A DNA stretch of 64,000 nt from Gemmatales bacterium (lineage in GTDB: Bacteria > Planctomycetota > Planctomycetia > Gemmatales > HRBIN36). The stretch is taken from assembly GCA_041640595.1 (NCBI GenBank), contig JBEPZY010000002.1, positions 276,551 to 340,550 of the forward strand. The letters run 5' to 3'. How positions within the stretch are numbered: the first letter of the stretch is position 1; the number at the start of each line of letters is the position of its first letter. The notes under the pieces were generated by a model. That model had not been told where the DNA came from and ran no database searches. It saw only the letters and a list, made by a program, of their open reading frames with translations. Both the position numbers and the translations under genes were made by a program. Below, in pieces: positions 5,755-15,125 of this stretch.

Positions 5755-7410
5755 TTATTCCACGGACACCACCTCGATTTGCAGGTGGGACAGGAGCGGT
5801 TGGAAGACCAGGAGCGGGCGTGTCGGTTGCACATCGTTCCAGCTGTGATGGGCGAGTTTGATGTGTGTGGCGGTGATATGCTCCTGGTTGAGCGTTGGGT
5901 CTAAACCGTACCATCGGCCGCGAATCCACACTTCCAGCCACATGTGCGGCACGAACGCCCGATGGTGCGGGTCGTACAAAAAACCCATCGCTAACCGCGA
6001 CGGCACACCGACCGCACGACACATAGCCGCGGCGAGCACGGCATGTTCGGTACAATCGCCCGCCAGGGTGCGAGCTACCTCATCCGCTGAGGCAAACGCT
6101 TCCACATAGGTCTTGTCGCGGACGTTCTCGTACACCCAGCGTCGGATGCGCTGGGCTTTCTCCCACGGTTCGGTAGCACCAGCCACGGCACGGCGAGCCA
6201 GTTGCTGCACCAGCTTGTCCTCGCTATTGACGACCGGATTACTCCGCAAATACTCCGCAGGCGGTTCGGTTCGGTCAGTGTCACCCTGGCCGGGCTCATT
6301 ACCGCGGGACACTTCCAGTTCCAGCATTGCGGGCTGTCGCTGACGCAGACGTTGGCGGTCATCCTGCGGGAAAACTCCCTCGGCAAATTGCCCCGATTTC
6401 AGGGTCAGACGGTAGGTGATTTTCCGCGCTTGCAGAGGTTGTGCAATGGGCCGGGCGACGCGAATCATCTGCCTCAGGGCAATATCCACAGTCTCGACCG
6501 GGCCGGGGGCGAGTGCTTCCTCTTTGCCAGTGCGCAGGCATAGCATCTTGCCCAGTCCGGGCTGGTGGGTTTCCAGGCGAACCGGCTCCCCGGTTTCATC
6601 GAGCCAGATCAGGGCATCGGGCAATTCCACGCCGGGTATTTTTTCATAACGCGCCCGCAAGCGTAACCATTTCCGTCCCGCGGTAAAAGGCCCCGTGTCG
6701 TAATCCTCGGCGGTGACCTGGAGCTGAACGAAGCGATCCAGTTCCGGCACGAATTTGCAATATTGTCGCCTGGTGCCGGGCTCCCACTTCTGCTGGCTCA
6801 AAAACCGTTCTTCTGCGTACAAACCGAGGGCTTCGGCTTTCCAGGGAATGCGTACCTGGCGGGGTGGTTGTTGCCCGATCTGCACCTGCATGACCAGTTC
6901 CTCGCCGATCACCGTGCCGCGGCGAATGATGTGCTGGTCGCGGCCAATCTGCAGGTGCACGGTCACACTGGCCACCAGTCCCTGCGGCGTTTCGTAATTG
7001 GCCAGGGTGTTGACAAAGGTCACCGGTTGCCCAAACCGCCGCACTCGCAATTCCATCGTGCTCGTGGCCTGGATAAACGGCTGCCCACGTATGCTGACTT
7101 CCTGATACACATGGTGCAAATGGCCCGATTTCACGCCTTCCAGATACAGCGCTTCCCAGACCTCTTTCAAGATTTTGCCAGGGCGAACCTCGCCGTTGGC
7201 GGGTGGATTCTGCGCCCAGCTGATGGCCAAACCTGCCAGGCTCATTCCCGCAAGCACAAGCGTTATGCCGATTGCCCACTGCTTGTGCCATCGCTTCCCC
7301 GCACTACTGGTTGCATTCGAGTGAAGCAGGCACGGATGCGGAGTTGGCACGCCACCTGGCGAAATCATCGGCAACCCTGCGGCATGGCGAACGTGTTGAC
7401 CTGGTGTCAT
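5755..7410 (-). CDS. Transglutaminase-like domain protein, exported or membrane-anchored
   Basis: GDCTEHAVL (catalytic Cys), HMWLEV (His) and LDPT (Asp); N-terminal hydrophobic segment. GGAAGGAG RBS before ATG 7410. Confidence 0.85.
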   Translation of the reverse strand: MTPGQHVRHAAGLPMISPGGVPTPHPCLLHSNATSSAGKRWHKQWAIGITLVLAGMSLAGLAISWAQNPPANGEVRPGKILKEVWEALYLEGVKSGHLHHVYQEVSIRGQPFIQATSTMELRVRRFGQPVTFVNTLANYETPQGLVASVTVHLQIGRDQHIIRRGTVIGEELVMQVQIGQQPPRQVRIPWKAEALGLYAEERFLSQQKWEPGTRRQYCKFVPELDRFVQLQVTAEDYDTGPFTAGRKWLRLRARYEKIPGVELPDALIWLDETGEPVRLETHQPGLGKMLCLRTGKEEALAPGPVETVDIALRQMIRVARPIAQPLQARKITYRLTLKSGQFAEGVFPQDDRQRLRQRQPAMLELEVSRGNEPGQGDTDRTEPPAEYLRSNPVVNSEDKLVQQLARRAVAGATEPWEKAQRIRRWVYENVRDKTYVEAFASADEVARTLAGDCTEHAVLAAAMCRAVGVPSRLAMGFLYDPHHRAFVPHMWLEVWIRGRWYGLDPTLNQEHITATHIKLAHHSWNDVQPTRPLLVFQPLLSHLQIEVVSVE

Positions 7411-7776
7411 AGCGAGGACTCCTTCCAGAGTGCACAAGGTGAGGCAAAACACCGTGCGTTGCTGGCGCGGCTCTGAAAGTTTTGCCCGCGACCTGATGCT
7501 CCGCTTACAATCATAGCCGATCGCCTGCATCCGCGGTATGGCGAGCATGTTCACCGCTGAACACGTCCAGCAGGCATCGCCGCTGTTTTGCGACTAATAA
7601 GTCGCGCAGGCATAGTCGGCAGGATCGTCGGCTCAGGTCAGGATCGGTGCTGGCGGAGCATTTTTCTTCAGTTCCGACATTCAGCCAGACCGGGGCCAGG
7701 GCGATACAATGATACAGACACCTGGATCTTCCTCCCGCCGCGGTTCTGTTGCCAACCCCCTGCCATCGGAAGCTCC

Positions 7777-8412: not shown

Positions 8413-8502
8413 TCCGCTGGTATCACGGCGTTGAAAAATAAGCAAGCGGAAGATTGTAGCGACGGCACGACTTTCCCCCACCCGCCCGCCCAGCGAACCG
8501 AC

Positions 8503-8895
8503 ACCCGCCGCTCTTGTTCGTCCGTTCGCTAGTCGCTGAACGAAGCGCGTTTCCCGCTGCACAACGTTCGTATCACGGAACCACGGCGGGCTGACGCCCG
8601 CCGCTCCTGTTCGTCCGTTCGCTAGTCGCTGAACGAAGCGCGTTTCCCGCTGCACAACGTTCGTATCACCGAACCACGGCGGGCTGACGCCCGCCGCTCT
8701 TGGCTGGACGCACGCCTGCGCATTGCAAGTCGCGCATCTCGCACCGAACAAGCGTCGTGCACCAAGAGCGGCTGGCGTAAGCCAGCCGTGGCACCACATC
8801 CGCATGTGCGGCGCAAAACGTATTCAATCCGAAAAAGCCGGTGGCGTTGCAAGTGCGAATCCGAACCGCGGCGGGCTGACGCCCGCCGCTCTTGG
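8503..8895. repeat. REP/BIME-like array 2 (~5 units)
   Basis: Same hairpin units; contains a near-perfect 93-bp tandem duplication (8504/8597). Confidence 0.85.
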
Positions 8896-9263
8896 TTGTG
8901 TGTGCGGTCGTCGTAGAGCAGAGTTCGATTCTCGCAGGACAGTGAGCGAATTACTTGTCGTGATTTGGCGCCGCTCCGTTCCTTCGGGAACAGTCGTCTC
9001 TTGGGCGAACGAGGGCGACGCATCCTTGACCGCAATCCACCAGTCGCCCTTTAATGACCGGCGTAGTCGCGGTGACCGAACCGTACGCCGTGCAACTTTC
9101 CCTGGCTGACGACGAAAGCTTTGGTAAATACGGCAAGCGCGATATTACCGACTCTGGTGCAACTTTCGCTGGCCGACGACGAAAACGCGAACATTGGTTC
9201 TGGTGAGATAAAAACGACACCATCTGGTGCGAATTTCGCCCGCCGACGACGGAAGCCCGAACC

Positions 9264-10169
9264 ATGGCCATCCTCATTTTGGGCAGTTATGACGATGAGC
9301 ATGCCTGCCATGTTTACCAGTACCTGAAAGACCGTTGCCGGCAGGACGTGGAGCTGTTCGACAGTCGCTGGTTCCCAACGCACACGCAGATTAGTTTTGA
9401 ACCGCAAGGCTGCCAGGGATGGTTACGCTTGCCTACGGGCCGTCGGTTGCGGTGGGAGGAAATTACTGCGGTTTACTGGCGCTGTTACTACGGCGTGGCC
9501 GTTCCATCTCTTCCCGATCCGGAGCAGCGACTGATTGCCGAATCGGATAGCCAGGGGCTGATCGAGACACTGTTTCTGGAGCTGCCCGCTCGCTGGGTCA
9601 ATGGCTGGCACGCTCAGCAACTGCATCGCACCAAACCGGTGCAATTGCAGCGTGTGGCGCGGCTGGGGTTAGCCATCCCCGCGACCGTCGTCACCAACGA
9701 TGCCGAAACGGTAAAGCAATTCGTGGCCGAGCATGGGCGGTGTATCTTCAAGCCCGTGCAGGGCGGTGCGCATGCCCGTTACGTCGAAAGCCGACACCTC
9801 ACCGATGAGCATCTGTCGTTGCTCCGTGTTGCCCCGGTTACCATCCAGGAGGCTGTAGAAGGCACGAACATTCGCGTTTTTGTCGCCGGTCAGGAGGTGT
9901 ATGCGTGCGAAATTCGCACGCCCTGTCTCGACTACCGCGACGATCCCCAGCCACGCATTCTCGTTCATACACTGCCAGCGGAGGTGGTCGAGCAGTGCCG
10001 GACAGCGGCCAGGGAACTCGATTTGCTCTGGACGGGGATGGACTTTCGCCTGACTGCGGACGGACGCTATGTGTTTTTAGAAGCGAATCCCAGCCCGATG
10101 TTTTTGGGTTTCGAAAAGGCCACGGGTCTGCCCCTGACCGAGGCCCTGGTGAAGCTGCTGACAGGATAA
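9264..10169 (+). CDS. RimK-like ATP-grasp ligase, probable graspetide macrocyclase
   Basis: AVYWR, WVN, K-x-x-QL, IPATVVTND, IFKPVQGG, IQE, IRV, DYR and GMDF...FLEANPSP motifs typical of RiPP ATP-grasp enzymes; adjacent to a TTxxxxEE repeat peptide. Confidence 0.9.
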   Translation: MAILILGSYDDEHACHVYQYLKDRCRQDVELFDSRWFPTHTQISFEPQGCQGWLRLPTGRRLRWEEITAVYWRCYYGVAVPSLPDPEQRLIAESDSQGLIETLFLELPARWVNGWHAQQLHRTKPVQLQRVARLGLAIPATVVTNDAETVKQFVAEHGRCIFKPVQGGAHARYVESRHLTDEHLSLLRVAPVTIQEAVEGTNIRVFVAGQEVYACEIRTPCLDYRDDPQPRILVHTLPAEVVEQCRTAARELDLLWTGMDFRLTADGRYVFLEANPSPMFLGFEKATGLPLTEALVKLLTG

Positions 10170-10263
10170 CATGTCGGTCGGACTTGCTGACGGGGCAAGG
10201 GCCAATTTTCGGCGAGCAGCGAGGTGGTACCGGTTTTCAGGAGAAGCGCGTTCCGGGCCGGTG

Positions 10264-10758
10264 TCACCGGACGCGTTCGCCTGCTTCAAACCATGCCATG
10301 GTGGGACGCTTGGGTGGGTTGCCTTCCTCGCCCAGTGCAAAGGTAGTTATCGGGCCTCTGGGTGGCTTTACGCCTTCTTCGTTCCGGACGTTGGTGGTCG
10401 GCGGGACGCGAGGCGGGTTGCCCTCCTCACCTAACGCCAGTGTGGTTACCTGTCCTGGCGGTAATACGATCCGGGGCGGATTGCCTTCTTCTCCGAGCGC
10501 TTGCGTGGTAAATTGTCCCGGCGGCAGGTTTGGCCGCTGCGGATTTGCCGGCGGACGAGCAGTTCGCTCGGAAGCGATCGCACTGGCCATCGGCAGAATC
10601 AGCGTGCTGGCAACCGCAGCACACAGGCGGTCCAACCATTCCCGCCGAGAGAGCCGGTGCGAAGAATCGGTTGGCTCGTTCCTGGTCTGGGGCACAGGAG
10701 CGCCTACTGCTTCCGATTCGCACCCAGCGAGGTTCAGTCCGTCAAAGGGATGACGCAT
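10264..10758 (-). CDS. Multicore graspetide precursor (4x TTxxxxEE) with a putative Tat signal
   Basis: GGAGG RBS. Cores TTQALGEE, TTLALGEE, TTNVRNEE and TTFALGEE. SRREWL, a hydrophobic stretch and ASA/AIA lie at aa 37-62. Confidence 0.85.
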   Translation of the reverse strand: MRHPFDGLNLAGCESEAVGAPVPQTRNEPTDSSHRLSRREWLDRLCAAVASTLILPMASAIASERTARPPANPQRPNLPPGQFTTQALGEEGNPPRIVLPPGQVTTLALGEEGNPPRVPPTTNVRNEEGVKPPRGPITTFALGEEGNPPKRPTMAWFEAGERVR

Positions 10759-11305: not shown

Positions 11306-13666
11306 ATGACGCACTTGTGCCGTTCTTATTGGCTCTGGTCGGTGGCGGGGCTGTGTGGCCTGGCGACCTGGTTATGCCTGGCACAGTCGCCGGAGTTGAT
11401 CGTCGCCGAGGTGCGTATCGAAGGCGCACGCCGTCAGCCCGAACAAGCCATCCTCAATATGCTGAAAACCCGTCCAGGCCGCGTTTATAACCCGCTGGAA
11501 ATTCAGGAAGATGTCCGCAAACTGATGGAAACCAACTGGTTCGCCGATGTTCGCCCGGCCGAAGCACGCACTCCCCAGGGAGTCGTGGTCATCTTCCGTG
11601 TCGTCGAACGCCCGACCATCAAGGAAATCATTTACGACGGCGCCAAGCATCTCAGCCGGAAAGAGCTGGAAGAAATTACCGGATTGCGACCCGGCGGGCC
11701 GATGGACCCGGCTCTGAACTGGCGGGCCCGCGAGGCCATCGAACGCAAATACAAAGAAAAAGGTCGGTTGCTGGCGCGCGTGGAACTTGTCGAAGGAACC
11801 AAGTCCGACGACCTCCGCGTGGTCTTCCGCATTACCGAAGGGCCGGTCATTCGTATCCGCAGCCTCAGCTTTGAAGGCAACAACTTCGTCAGCGCTGCCC
11901 GGCTGAAAACGCAGATTGATTCGCGGGCCACCTTGCTGGGATTTTTCGGCGAATACGATCCGGAACGCCTGGATAACGACGTGTTGAAGTTGCTGAAATA
12001 CTACCACACCTTCGGCTTTTTCGAGGCCCGCATCGGTCGCAAGGTTTTCTGGCAGCCCGGCAGTGATCGCGTGGATGTCGTTTTCGTGATTGAAGAAGGG
12101 CCGCGATCCTATATCGCCGGCACCGAGGTTGCCGGGAATCGCATCCTCGACCAGAGCATGCTCCTCGCCCATGACAAAACCGAAAAAGGCAAGCCCTACA
12201 ACGCCAATATCGTCCAGGCCAGCGCTCGAGAAATGCGTGATGAATACTGGAAACGCGGCTATGTCTTCGCGGATGTCCAGCCGATCCTCAAATACAGCAG
12301 CGAGCCGGGAGTTACGACTGTTGTTTACCAGGTCAATGAAGGCCCATTGCCGCAGACCGGCGAGCCATATCGAGTCGGCGAAATCCGCATCGTCGGTAAC
12401 ACGGTCACCCAGGATCGCGTCATCCGGCGGGAACTTGTCGGCCTGGAACCGGGCCAGGTGTTTGACCGAACGGCTATCGCTCTCAGCGAACGCAATCTCT
12501 CGCGACTGCGCATCTTCAGGGAAGACCCGATTCAGGGAATTCGCCCCACCATCACCATCCTCAACGAAACCGATCCCTCGCCGTATAAGGATCTGCTGGT
12601 GGAAGTGCAGGAGGATCGCACCGGTTCGCTGTTAGTAGGAGCGGCGTTCAGCACTGATTACGGTGCCAACCTGAGCATTATCCTCAACGAGCGAAACTTC
12701 GACATTTTTGGCTTTCCGCGTTTGACAAGCTGGGATGATTTCTGGACGGATTTGACCAGCGGTCGCGCCTTCCGCGGGGCTGGCCAGGAATTGAGAATCG
12801 AGGCCATTCCAGGTACCGAAATCAGCCGCTACACCATTACCTGGCGTGAACCCCGGTTATTCGATAGCCCCTACAGTTTAGGCGTGGGTGGCTATTACTA
12901 CACGCGGATTTTCGATGAATACACGGAACAGCGTACTGGTGGGAGGATCACGCTGGGCCGACGGTTGACCCCGGAGTGGAGCTTCAACGTCGGTTTTCGC
13001 ATCGAGGATGTGAAAGTGCGGAGTATTCCACCGACCGCGCCGCCGGATTTCTTCGAGGTGGCCGGGCATAATTTCGTTTTAGCCCCGCGTATCGCTCTGG
13101 TGCGGGACACGCGCGATTCGATCATCCGCGCCACCACGGGCAATTTCCTGGAAATCGCTTACGAGCAGGGATTGGGCGATTTCACCTATCCGATTGTGAC
13201 CATCGAGGATAGCCAGTACTGGACGATTTACGAACGGCCCGACGGTTCCGGTCGGCACGTGCTGGTGTTGCGGGGGATTGTCGGTTGGGCCGGCGACGAC
13301 ACGCCGCTTTTCGATCGTTTCTACGCTGGCGGTTTCCGCACGCTGCGTGGTTTCCGATTCCGGGGCGTCGGACCGCGAGTTAACGGTTTCAACGTTGGCG
13401 GCACGTTTGAAGCGCTCGGCAGCCTCGAATACCAGGTTCCCTTGCTGGCCAATGATATGATTTACGCCATCGCCTTTACCGATTTCGGTACCGTGGACAG
13501 CGATGTAACGCTGGAAAATTTCCGCGTCTCCGCCGGTTTCGGTCTGCGGATCAATGTGCCGATGTTAGGCCCGGCCCCGATCGCACTCGATTGGGGCTTC
13601 CCGATCGTCAAGGAAGATGGCGATCGCCGGCGCACCTTCTTCTTCGGCATCGCTTTCTCGCGGTGA
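11306..13666 (+). CDS. bamA: Outer-membrane protein assembly factor BamA (Omp85 family)
   Basis: Signal peptide, POTRA repeats, RFYAGG...LRGFRFRGVGP (VRGF-like) motif and C-terminal FFFGIAFSR beta-signal. The start at ATG 11306 is inferred. Confidence 0.92.
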   Translation: MTHLCRSYWLWSVAGLCGLATWLCLAQSPELIVAEVRIEGARRQPEQAILNMLKTRPGRVYNPLEIQEDVRKLMETNWFADVRPAEARTPQGVVVIFRVVERPTIKEIIYDGAKHLSRKELEEITGLRPGGPMDPALNWRAREAIERKYKEKGRLLARVELVEGTKSDDLRVVFRITEGPVIRIRSLSFEGNNFVSAARLKTQIDSRATLLGFFGEYDPERLDNDVLKLLKYYHTFGFFEARIGRKVFWQPGSDRVDVVFVIEEGPRSYIAGTEVAGNRILDQSMLLAHDKTEKGKPYNANIVQASAREMRDEYWKRGYVFADVQPILKYSSEPGVTTVVYQVNEGPLPQTGEPYRVGEIRIVGNTVTQDRVIRRELVGLEPGQVFDRTAIALSERNLSRLRIFREDPIQGIRPTITILNETDPSPYKDLLVEVQEDRTGSLLVGAAFSTDYGANLSIILNERNFDIFGFPRLTSWDDFWTDLTSGRAFRGAGQELRIEAIPGTEISRYTITWREPRLFDSPYSLGVGGYYYTRIFDEYTEQRTGGRITLGRRLTPEWSFNVGFRIEDVKVRSIPPTAPPDFFEVAGHNFVLAPRIALVRDTRDSIIRATTGNFLEIAYEQGLGDFTYPIVTIEDSQYWTIYERPDGSGRHVLVLRGIVGWAGDDTPLFDRFYAGGFRTLRGFRFRGVGPRVNGFNVGGTFEALGSLEYQVPLLANDMIYAIAFTDFGTVDSDVTLENFRVSAGFGLRINVPMLGPAPIALDWGFPIVKEDGDRRRTFFFGIAFSR

Positions 13667-13899
13667 AATCGTCTGCTCGCCGGCGAAGACGGGCGGCTGC
13701 TGTGTGAAGGACACGGTGTTGGCGGCTGTTTGGAGGACATGGTGACGGTTCAGCGAGCGCGGTAGCAGCCTCGACTCTTGCGTGTCAACGGCTGCTCGGA
13801 GGACACGGTGATTTTCGCTTTGCCGCTTCGTTCTGAAACAGGCGTTTTGTACAGCGCAAAAGTCGCATTTTCATCCAAAACCACCATCGTGCAATGCAG

Positions 13900-15125
13900 C
13901 CAGGAGCGGCGGGCGTCAGCCCGCCGTGGGTGTTTGGCAAACGCACTTGCAACACCGATACCGCTCACGACCGGGGACACTCGTCACGTGCGGAGACAAG
14001 AGCGGCGGGCGTCAGCCCGCCGTGGGTATCGGTATCGCACTTGCAAAGGCGCTTCCACAAAGTCGCAGGAGACCGCCGGCAGTTTGTGTGCCGATCGCCG
14101 GCGCTGTCGCGCTCAGCGGTGCAGCAAAGGGGCGACTGTTGTACCAGCGCCGGCTTTCCGTGATTTTCAGTCGTTGTGCTCCCGTGCAGGGTAGCCACGG
14201 GGGGCTAACGCCCCCCGCTCTTGGTTGTACATGCGTTTGTGCATCGCAAAAGTCGCCATTTCACCGGCACACGTTCGCGCCTGCAACCAGGAGCGGCGGG
14301 CGTGAGCCCGCCGTGGGTGTGGGAAAGATGTTCACGCAGACAAAAGCGCGATTGTTCGGCAGACCCCCGACGGTGCGTGTGCCGATGGCCGTTGCATTCG
14401 CGTCCAGGCTTACACGGGGGGCTAACGCCCCCCGCTCTTGTGTTGCAGTGCGAAGGTCCGCCGGCGAAAAACGATTTTTGCGATGCACGAACGCACGTCC
14501 ACAAGAGCGGCGGGCGTGAGCCCGCCGTGGGTGGCGGAAACGCACTTGCAACACCGATACCGCTCACGTCCGGGGACACTCGTCACGTGCGGACACAAGA
14601 GCGGCGGGCGTCAGCCCGCCGTGGGCGTGGGTAACGCACTTGCAGGAACGGTTCCGCAAAGTCGCAGGAGGCCGCCGGTAGTGTCCTCACGAACTTCGGT
14701 GCAGTGGCGTCCAGCGGCGCCGCGAAGGGCCGACTGTTGTACCAACGCCGGCTTTCCGTGATTTTCAGTCGTTGTGCTCCCGTGCAGGGTAGCCACGGGG
14801 GGCTAACGCCCCCCCGCTCTTGGTTGTACATGCGTTTGTGCATCGCGAAAGTCGTCATTTCACCGGCACGCGTTCGCGCCTGCAACCAGGAGCGGCGGGC
14901 GTCAGCCCGCCGTGGGTGAGAGTATCGCACTTGCACAGGCGCTTTAGCAAAGTCACGCGAGGTCGCCGGCAGTGCGCTCACGAACGCCGGTGCAGGCGCG
15001 TTAGCGAACCACGGGGGGCTTACGCCCCCCGCTCTTGGTTGCACGCACGCATATCGTCGGAGATGGGCGGTTGCGATTTGCAACGGCGTTTTGTTTCACA
15101 CGGGGGGCTGACGCCCCCGCTCTTG
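13900..15125. repeat. REP/BIME-like array 3 (~11 units, inverted relative to array 1)
   Basis: CAGGAGCGGCGGGCGTCAGCCCGCCGTGG and CCACGGGGGGCTAACGCCCCCCGCTCTTG units sharing linker modules with the other arrays. Confidence 0.9.

Follow-up and report, generated by a model that had tools for sequence, protein, structure and literature searches.

A two-gene planctomycete graspetide locus with a conserved twin-arginine leader as a candidate for Tat-dependent export

Organisation of the locus

The analysed stretch of DNA, referred to as the window, comprised 64,000 nucleotides of a contig from a Gemmatales bacterium of the phylum Planctomycetota. It carried a locus of two convergent genes for a predicted graspetide, a peptide made on the ribosome and modified post-translationally (RiPP) with side-chain esters. 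A 301-aa ATP-grasp graspetide synthetase, starting with MAILILG and showing no visible export signal, was encoded at 9264..10169 on the plus strand. The precursor gene at 10264..10758 on the minus strand encoded 164 aa with an HPF motif, a leader resembling a twin-arginine signal, four TTxxxxEE cores and one degenerate core. A GGAGG ribosome-binding site was located upstream of its ATG. An initial annotation, made from the sequence alone, had described a multicore precursor converging on a RimK-like ATP-grasp gene 94 bp away. The convergence was borne out, and the distance is that from stop codon to stop codon.

The four cores of that annotation were all present: TTQALGEE (core 1, 10486..10509), TTLALGEE (core 2, 10423..10446), TTNVRNEE (core 3, 10375..10398) and TTFALGEE (core 4, 10324..10347), all on the minus strand. 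Core 3 had an atypical loop that varied among close strains, its counterparts in close homologues being TTKARNEE, ITKARNEE or ITEARNEE. After each core came G and a Pro-rich linker; the degenerate fifth motif PTMAWFEAGE (10276..10305, minus strand) was likewise found as described. T153 and E158 of this motif retain the spacing of an inner ring, so that one ester may form there and the predicted loss of up to eight water molecules may rise to nine. TTxxxxEE matched 29 times when the 4.45-Mb genome was translated in six frames, giving 8.68 million residues. The window precursor was the sole frame with two or more matches, which argues against a chance array. UniRef contained 54 homologues of the precursor, the named ones belonging to Thermogemmata, Stieleria and Planctomycetota. 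These names and 19 PSD1 matches in the genome are consistent with the planctomycete origin proposed earlier.

The leader consisted, in this order, of MRHPFDGL (10735..10758), a low-complexity spacer, the twin-arginine motif S37-R-R-E-W-L42 (10633..10650), 19 uncharged residues and A-x-A, again on the minus strand. MRHPFDGL is predicted to be the ligase-docking motif and the counterpart of LFIEDL in PsnA2, the precursor of plesiocin. The hydrophobic region and the predicted signal peptidase I site comprised residues 45-62 (10573..10626, minus strand), with A62 or A60 as the predicted residue before the cut. LFIEDL was absent, as was a double-glycine site ahead of core 1. An ordinary plesiocin system with LFIEDL and double glycine was thus rejected, as the precursor has neither element. 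In this respect the initial annotation is incomplete: it passed over the twin-arginine leader and the missing C39 peptidase-type exporter and took the locus for an ordinary plesiocin system.

Identity of the ligase

The closest solved structure to the ligase in a PDB search was the plesiocin ligase PsnB (7DRM, E 2e-37); microviridin ligases (1e-17) and RimK (2e-5) ranked lower. Among NCBIfam models, graspetide maturases ranked at the top (TIGR04187, 155 bits) versus 41 bits for RimK, with all scores under the respective cut-offs. The ligase also scored under the cut-offs of PF08443, TIGR00768 and TIGR02144. Of the earlier term 'RimK-like ATP-grasp', the ATP-grasp part therefore held, and the likeness to RimK was only loose (Pfam RimK 19 bits, cut-off 21). 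A grouping of the ligase with RimK was found neither in the NCBIfam ranking nor among the PDB matches or in the trees.

Functional residues described for PsnB are R213, R72, K172 and the DFR loop (233-235), and a hydrophobic pocket binds Phe15 of the leader (10.1101/2021.03.09.434688). In the alignment of the PDB search, the window residues R73, K163, R204, D223-Y-R225 and L187 corresponded to PsnB R72, K172, R213, DFR233-235 and L196. R73, K163, R204, D223 and R225 were invariant across 36 aligned ligases and L187 occurred in at least 90%. The pocket residues Y171/I193/L196/V201/F203 and R181 of PsnB corresponded to F162/L184/L187/V192/I194 and R172 in the window ligase. Both enzymes thus share the catalytic and DFR-loop residues, D223-Y-R225 fitting the D(F/W/Y)R loop of Group 2 enzymes, and have a similar pocket for the leader Phe. 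Judged by conservation, docking of the ligase on the HPF motif is probable. Ester formation in the cores is highly likely. Placement in Group 2 of the graspetides is supported by PsnB as the top PDB match and by the filing of planctomycete precursors with HPF and twin arginine (HPF/RR precursors) in a published table.

In the trees, the window ligase and the PsnB stand-in L001 (37% identity) belonged to different clades. This stand-in was one of two loci obtained in a search of genome contigs with a single ligase. The ligases of HPF/RR precursors were all placed on one side of a branch (25/25, Shimodaira-Hasegawa-like approximate likelihood ratio test 95) in a 49-row tree, for which 24 near-duplicate or distant rows had been dropped. 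The same branch had a support of 0.86 in FastTree with all 73 rows. Ligases paired with LFIE(D/E)L precursors fell in other clades and were 32-37% identical to the window ligase.

A second type of RR leader without HPF (RRDFL) occurred in Stieleria and relatives, and its ligase, L059, was only 27% identical. Uniting this type with the HPF/RR clade gave p 0.017 in the approximately unbiased test (33-row tree), and a single origin of both RR-leader lineages was rejected on this value, which comes from one representative and carries a long-branch warning. The precursor at L059:9436-10998 (genome G728) combined an RR leader lacking HPF with a conserved W(K/R)xFRRW tail and a divergent ligase. About 9 kb downstream of it, G728 showed a weak C39-like match.

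Linkage of ligase and precursor

Among 400 other genomes of the phylum, 16 had a ligase match and 10 a multicore precursor, and all 10 were within the 16. The initial annotation had named an association of homologous ligases with TTxxxxEE peptides in other genomes as a test of its reading, and this association was observed (10/10 genomes with a multicore precursor versus 16/400 overall). With the ligase standing apart from RimK and with homologous ligases tied to TTxxxxEE peptides, the proposed multicore graspetide is supported. In 400 genomes of the class, 14 had a precursor, 13 of them with the HPF/RR leader. The ligase adjoined the precursor in 12 of these 13 and lay 88 kb away in one. From genomes and metagenomes together, 39 non-redundant HPF/RR loci were collected, including one near copy of the window; 31 of them had a ligase with at least 48% identity within 1.7 kb. 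The other eight comprised four contigs too short to tell and four solitary precursors, two of which had a ligase elsewhere in the genome.

The system is patchily distributed. A congeneric genome (93% complete) had no match to either gene and carried a different gene upstream of its bamA. Clustering of open reading frames (ORFs) across the loci detected, besides precursor and ligase, one cluster in eight loci and others in at most three; no conserved third gene was found beside the loci in this way.

Individual loci deviated from the two-gene layout. At L133:7386-8793, two HPF/RR precursors with 14 and 10 cores were arranged in tandem, with no ligase within the 16.7-kb locus. At L062:9582-10143 (G156), an HPF/RR precursor next to an intact ligase had its six cores cut off from the signal region by a frameshift, representing either a broken gene or a sequencing error. 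At L092, L114, L139 and L108, a different domain of about 100 residues preceded a fused TTxxxxEE array, with as many as 15 cores, and the partner ligase belonged to a distant lineage.

Twin-arginine segment of the leader

Residues H3, P4, F5, R38 and R39 were invariant in 27/27 aligned precursors, a set chosen for the HPF motif. Merging of 98 HPF precursors at 80% identity over the first 60 residues gave 71 non-redundant ones. An RR within the first 55 residues was present in 62 of them and a signal-like context in 61. The pattern used by default in TatP is RR.[FGAVML][LITMVF], and the consensus for twin-arginine translocation (Tat) is (S/T)RRxFLK (PMC1182353). The default pattern matched 41 of the 62 RR-bearing precursors, and 56 when W was permitted. 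Pattern and hydrophobicity filters together were passed by 54, versus 68 of 12,400 shuffles (0.5%) and 114 of 2,257 genome ORFs (5%).

The length of the spacer between HPF and RR was free, with RR anywhere from position 15 to 39. The hydrophobic stretch was short and rich in Ala and Gly, and in most HPF/RR members the segment ended in A-x-A, often followed by Q. The window precursor had A-x-A and a best 10-residue mean hydropathy of 2.27, calculated with a custom filter and not with SignalP or TatP. TIGR01409 matched 6/27 aligned members weakly at E <=0.1. A distant homologue (P0010) is named a twin-arginine signal protein in UniRef, and the window precursor had a weak match to the N-terminus of the hydrogenase-2 small subunit (E 0.076).

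Export genes

TatA and TatC were found in the window genome, and PF03412, the C39 peptidase family, had no match in this genome, which is 95% complete. Across 14 HPF/RR genomes, a PF03412 match was missing in seven, including the window genome, and unlinked to the locus in the other seven. C39 at the RR loci was assessed by one tblastn query and genome-wide family searches. The query covered loci L001-L149, among them 20 HPF/RR loci flanked by at least 4 kb in both directions, and matched only L149. At this locus of the double-glycine type, a C39 ATP-binding cassette (ABC) transporter and HlyD adjoined an HPF double-glycine precursor.

HPF occurred in further precursors with double-glycine leaders, among them the Group 2 precursor of Rheinheimera pleomorphica. 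HPF precursors without the RR segment mostly had an acidic helix ending in GG. As HPF is common to RR and GG precursors, the docking part appears to be shared and the downstream export module to differ. The leader sequences make Tat export with cleavage by signal peptidase likely. At L066-L069, other precursors from the planctomycete phylum had leaders of the LFIE(E/G)L or FFVEEL type, with as many as 20 cores.

Core variation and inserted domains

Statistics were calculated for 341 cores from 61 precursors. Core position 3 had an entropy of 2.97 bits (L, Q, Y, F, R, K) versus 0.75, 1.84 and 0.53 bits at positions 4-6, and A-(L/V/I)-G followed position 3 in almost every core. In precursors with at least three cores, position 3 was mixed in 58/58, and basic and hydrophobic residues were combined in 33/58. 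Such hypervariability is as expected of a specificity residue. The leucine exchanged in the engineered plesiocin Psn-LLLR is presumably that of core position 3. The window heads carry Q, L, N and F at this position. Plesiocin inhibits elastase and chymotrypsin, and Psn-LLLR gains trypsin inhibition (PMC10125368). The suggestion of the initial annotation that different loops could address different proteases is supported with regard to diversity, which is narrowed to position 3. By analogy, inhibition of serine proteases by the product is likely, if somewhat less so than docking on HPF.

Several relatives had an insert of about 170 residues between the Tat-like signal and the cores (L056, L060, L061, L063, L064, L084, L086, L089, L116, L134, L136 and L140). 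All nine longer proteins found with the insert shared the architecture HPF-RR-insert-core. The insert was modelled as two small alpha/beta domains with a predicted local distance difference test score of about 90. Subtilase propeptides were among the highest-ranking structural matches of the insert, all below Z 8: pro-subtilisin E (Z 6.8, root mean square deviation 2.6, 58 aligned) and the PCSK9 prodomain (Z 6.9, root mean square deviation 3.5, 85 aligned). Atlas leads for the insert had values of 0.88-0.89. Foldseek with the fused-precursor model returned nothing at E <=0.001, and no significant match came from searching PDB sequences with profiles of alignments A3 and A5. As modelled, a folded domain following RR is in keeping with a genuine Tat signal and with a role against proteases, without proving either. 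At L058:8969-9835 and L055:2480-3595, the precursors carried fused domains of a different, apparently helical kind, located behind the cores or between them; in genome G767 the ligase is 88 kb distant.

Surroundings of the locus

A scan for promoters gave 0 sites, terminator-like sites were close to shuffle level, and the GC content showed no island signature at the locus. The precursor gene was covered at >=90% identity by contigs from four hot-spring metatranscriptome runs, as strain variants. Contigs of run X1 span the whole stretch, so carry-over of DNA is possible, and the contigs are silent on level and strand; they were not counted as evidence of expression.

Immediately before the ligase, at 9086-9267, a 45-nt repeat occurred three times (62-100% alike, spacing 67-70), ending at the ligase start codon; it is possibly a regulatory element or one resembling repetitive extragenic palindromes (REP). 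At 8483-8963, arrays of GC-rich palindromic REP-like units comprised 93-nt tandem copies and inverted pairs, and very many RNA-library contigs stacked there. Similar elements were present near 13500-14000 and elsewhere in the window. A transglutaminase-like protein (PF01841) was encoded at 5755-7554 on the minus strand, about 1.7 kb upstream of the ligase, and no recurrence of this gene was seen beside related loci.

Proposed pathway and alternative explanations

The product is proposed to be a Group 2 graspetide that is stapled in the cytoplasm, exported by Tat and released as a multi-headed protease inhibitor, with a probability of roughly 0.6 for this reading as a whole. The cytoplasmic ligase would dock on the HPF motif and close the inner, then the outer Thr-Glu ester of each TTxxxxEE, presumably in the order of PsnB, as the inner ring of PsnA2 closes first (10.1101/2021.03.09.434688). 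The stapled chain would then be carried through the Tat translocase by means of the twin-arginine segment. Signal peptidase would take off docking motif and signal together in a single cut, so that neither a leader protease nor an ABC transporter would be needed. The predicted product would start near S63 and comprise about 100 residues with eight, possibly nine, esters, forming a periplasmic inhibitor with four heads of different specificity. Nothing in the locus accounts for an onward step across the outer membrane. Export by Sec would compete with cytoplasmic modification; Tat carries folded cargo. Because Tat takes this cargo post-translationally, time would be left for modification, and the twin-arginine signal in the leader together with the lack of a transporter of its own makes stapling inside the cell followed by Tat export likely. 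Engineered Tat export of modified nisin is cited in a review (PMC11048544).

Several observations weigh against Tat export. SRREWL keeps S, RR and L, and W for F is the sole cause of its failing the default TatP pattern; the precursor has no match to Pfam TAT_signal or TIGR01409. With RR at 38-39, the signal would have 60-62 residues versus a published mean of 37 (PMC1182353). Among 29 Tat-like ORFs of the genome, taken with predicted starts, two likewise had W at this place and two had RR at 37. Strict A-x-A was found in 44/62 RR precursors and was missing in 18. The hydrophobicity filters were custom-made and W was admitted after inspection of the data. As the searches behind the precursor sets started from the window precursor or its alignments, RR-bearing matches were favoured, and the HPF/RR counts include kin and are not independent. 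Used alone, regular expressions wrongly accept 15% of cytoplasmic RR proteins, many RR-motif proteins of B. subtilis take Sec, and uncleaved Tat anchors occur (PMC1182353). Sisterhood of the HPF/RR and HPF-GG ligases was supported by FastTree (0.99) and one IQ-TREE run (83), and another run left it unresolved. Unlinked C39 domains are present in seven HPF/RR genomes, and a linked exporter is missing not only from the RR type: it was not found within 16 kb at the double-glycine locus L118 and was not seen in 10-19 kb at L066-L069, some of which have LFIEEL leaders. The esters may form while the RR-hydrophobic segment is a degenerate remnant or an enzyme-binding leader, just as a bufferin signal peptide may itself belong to the enzyme-recognition sequence (PMC12452194); the product would remain in the cytoplasm or exit by an unlinked protease and transporter. 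This is considered unlikely, since RR is invariant although its position drifts from 15 to 39 and the three-part signal anatomy is kept across the clade. Moreover, ligases 45-48% identical to the window ligase adjoin HPF precursors without the RR helix, and half of the HPF/RR genomes have no C39 match.

Modification and Tat export may also hold for a product that is not an inhibitor, the stapled repeats binding metal, for instance, or serving as a rigid element at the surface or in signalling. Q, N or E, frequent at position 3, do not count as classic residues for chymotrypsin or trypsin, some precursors have long tails of Pro/Gly/Tyr or helical domains of an unrelated kind (L055, L058), and no protease gene recurs beside the loci. 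The window precursor itself has no I9-like domain. Inhibitor_I9 (PF05922) matched 8/10 insert members with a best E of 0.001, below the Pfam cut-off, and the structural Z-scores (<=6.9) were tied with unrelated folds of the same shape, such as MESD. Plesiocin and the Rheinheimera peptide, which has a TTQAVGEE core, are however both characterised Group 2 members and inhibit serine proteases, the variable position matches a specificity residue, and I9-like domains occur in some relatives. A non-inhibitory role appears slightly less probable still than a non-functional Tat signal. That the ATP-grasp enzyme is an amide ligase of the RimK/LysX type, unrelated to the adjoining repeat protein, is very improbable. 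Weak RimK matches exist and the window genes are convergent and do not form one operon, but PsnB and graspetide models score far above RimK, and a separate RimK-like gene in the same genome is remote from the window ligase in the trees. The ligase-precursor pair also remains adjacent through divergent (21), convergent (5) and tandem (5) layouts. A RimK-type ligase was rejected on family scores, PDB ranking and trees.

Tentatively, the pathway of stapling and Tat export may be extended to an evolutionary scenario that is somewhat less likely to be true than not. Planctomycetes would have kept HPF docking and swapped double glycine and C39 for a Tat signal, at least twice independently (in the HPF/RR clade and in the RRDFL lineage of Pirellulaceae type), with stapled heads strung on a modular exported protein. 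The size limit of a peptide transporter would not apply, and heads of several specificities could be placed on one exported protein. Some members would add tandem subtilisin-propeptide-like domains, and the ligase may keep the precursor from Tat until the cores are closed.

Relation to known systems

Plesiocin of Plesiocystis pacifica (PsnA2/PsnB, Group 2a, 7DRM) likewise has four TTxxxxEE cores and one ATP-grasp enzyme. Its precursor has an LFIEDL leader, in contrast to HPF and twin arginine in the window, where the cores also vary mutually at position 3, with Pro-rich linkers between them. The rcp system of Rheinheimera (RcpA/RcpB/RcpC) shares with the window system the N-terminal HPF, a TTQA(V/L)GEEG core and membership of Group 2. 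In a RODEO table of 2026, the R. pleomorphica Group 2 precursor combines an HPF leader with a GG site and the core TTQAVGEE (PMC13097080), and the Thr and Glu positions of this row agree with the ester-forming ones given for RcpA (PMC11626197). RcpA contains one single T10-E15 ester, is cut after GG by a C39 peptidase and yields a product that inhibits neutrophil elastase with a half-maximal inhibitory concentration of 0.31 uM (PMC11626197). The rcp system has a double-glycine site and a linked C39-ABC transporter, whereas the window precursor has a twin-arginine signal in this place and its genome lacks a C39 match. Among the loci collected, the nearest outside relatives of the window ligase are ligases of cyanobacterial-type HPF-GG loci (42-49% identical), and the HPF-GG rows of the published table are mostly cyanobacterial (PMC13097080).

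Group 2 rows list HPF/RR precursors of Gemmataceae, Thermogemmata fonticola and Singulisphaera acidiphila and RRDFL precursors of Stieleria, Rhodopirellula and Rubripirellula (PMC13097080, PMC8939145). With related planctomycete precursors in two published supplements, the class is already known. These published entries are sequence rows only. The accessible main texts of PMC13097080 and PMC8939145 mention neither Tat nor a signal peptide for these precursors, and the former reports that NHLM-type peptidase transporters accompany Group 2. Bufferins, oxazolins and lipoprotein-pathway RiPPs rely for export on a housekeeping signal and have no dedicated transporter, as proposed here (PMC12452194, PMC13056109). 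They differ in having Sec or lipoprotein signals, Cys-directed chemistry by MNIO enzymes (oxidative and dependent on multinuclear non-haem iron) and metal binding. 'Tat' was not found in the accessible main texts of these two papers, and no Tat passage was found in the available parts of PMC13003496 and PMC13381572. A literature search returned no natural Tat-exported graspetide; two key surveys and two supplements lay outside its reach. Where the accessible literature pairs graspetides with Tat, it concerns the HIV Tat peptide or engineered phage display. As a graspetide, the locus is an ordinary member; what sets it apart is the conserved twin-arginine leader without an exporter.

Implications

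If the proposed pathway is correct, the locus represents a natural graspetide pathway of only two genes, because Tat and signal peptidase are borrowed from the cell. It would explain the release route of graspetide loci without an exporter and extend signal-peptide RiPPs, so far of the Sec and lipoprotein types in the accessible literature, to Tat. The mixed heads would be natural multi-specific counterparts of engineered bifunctional plesiocin. The arrangement would also lend itself to the design of secreted or displayed peptides and proteins with ester staples, for which no leader protease would be required. Precursors of this kind are present in cultured planctomycetes.

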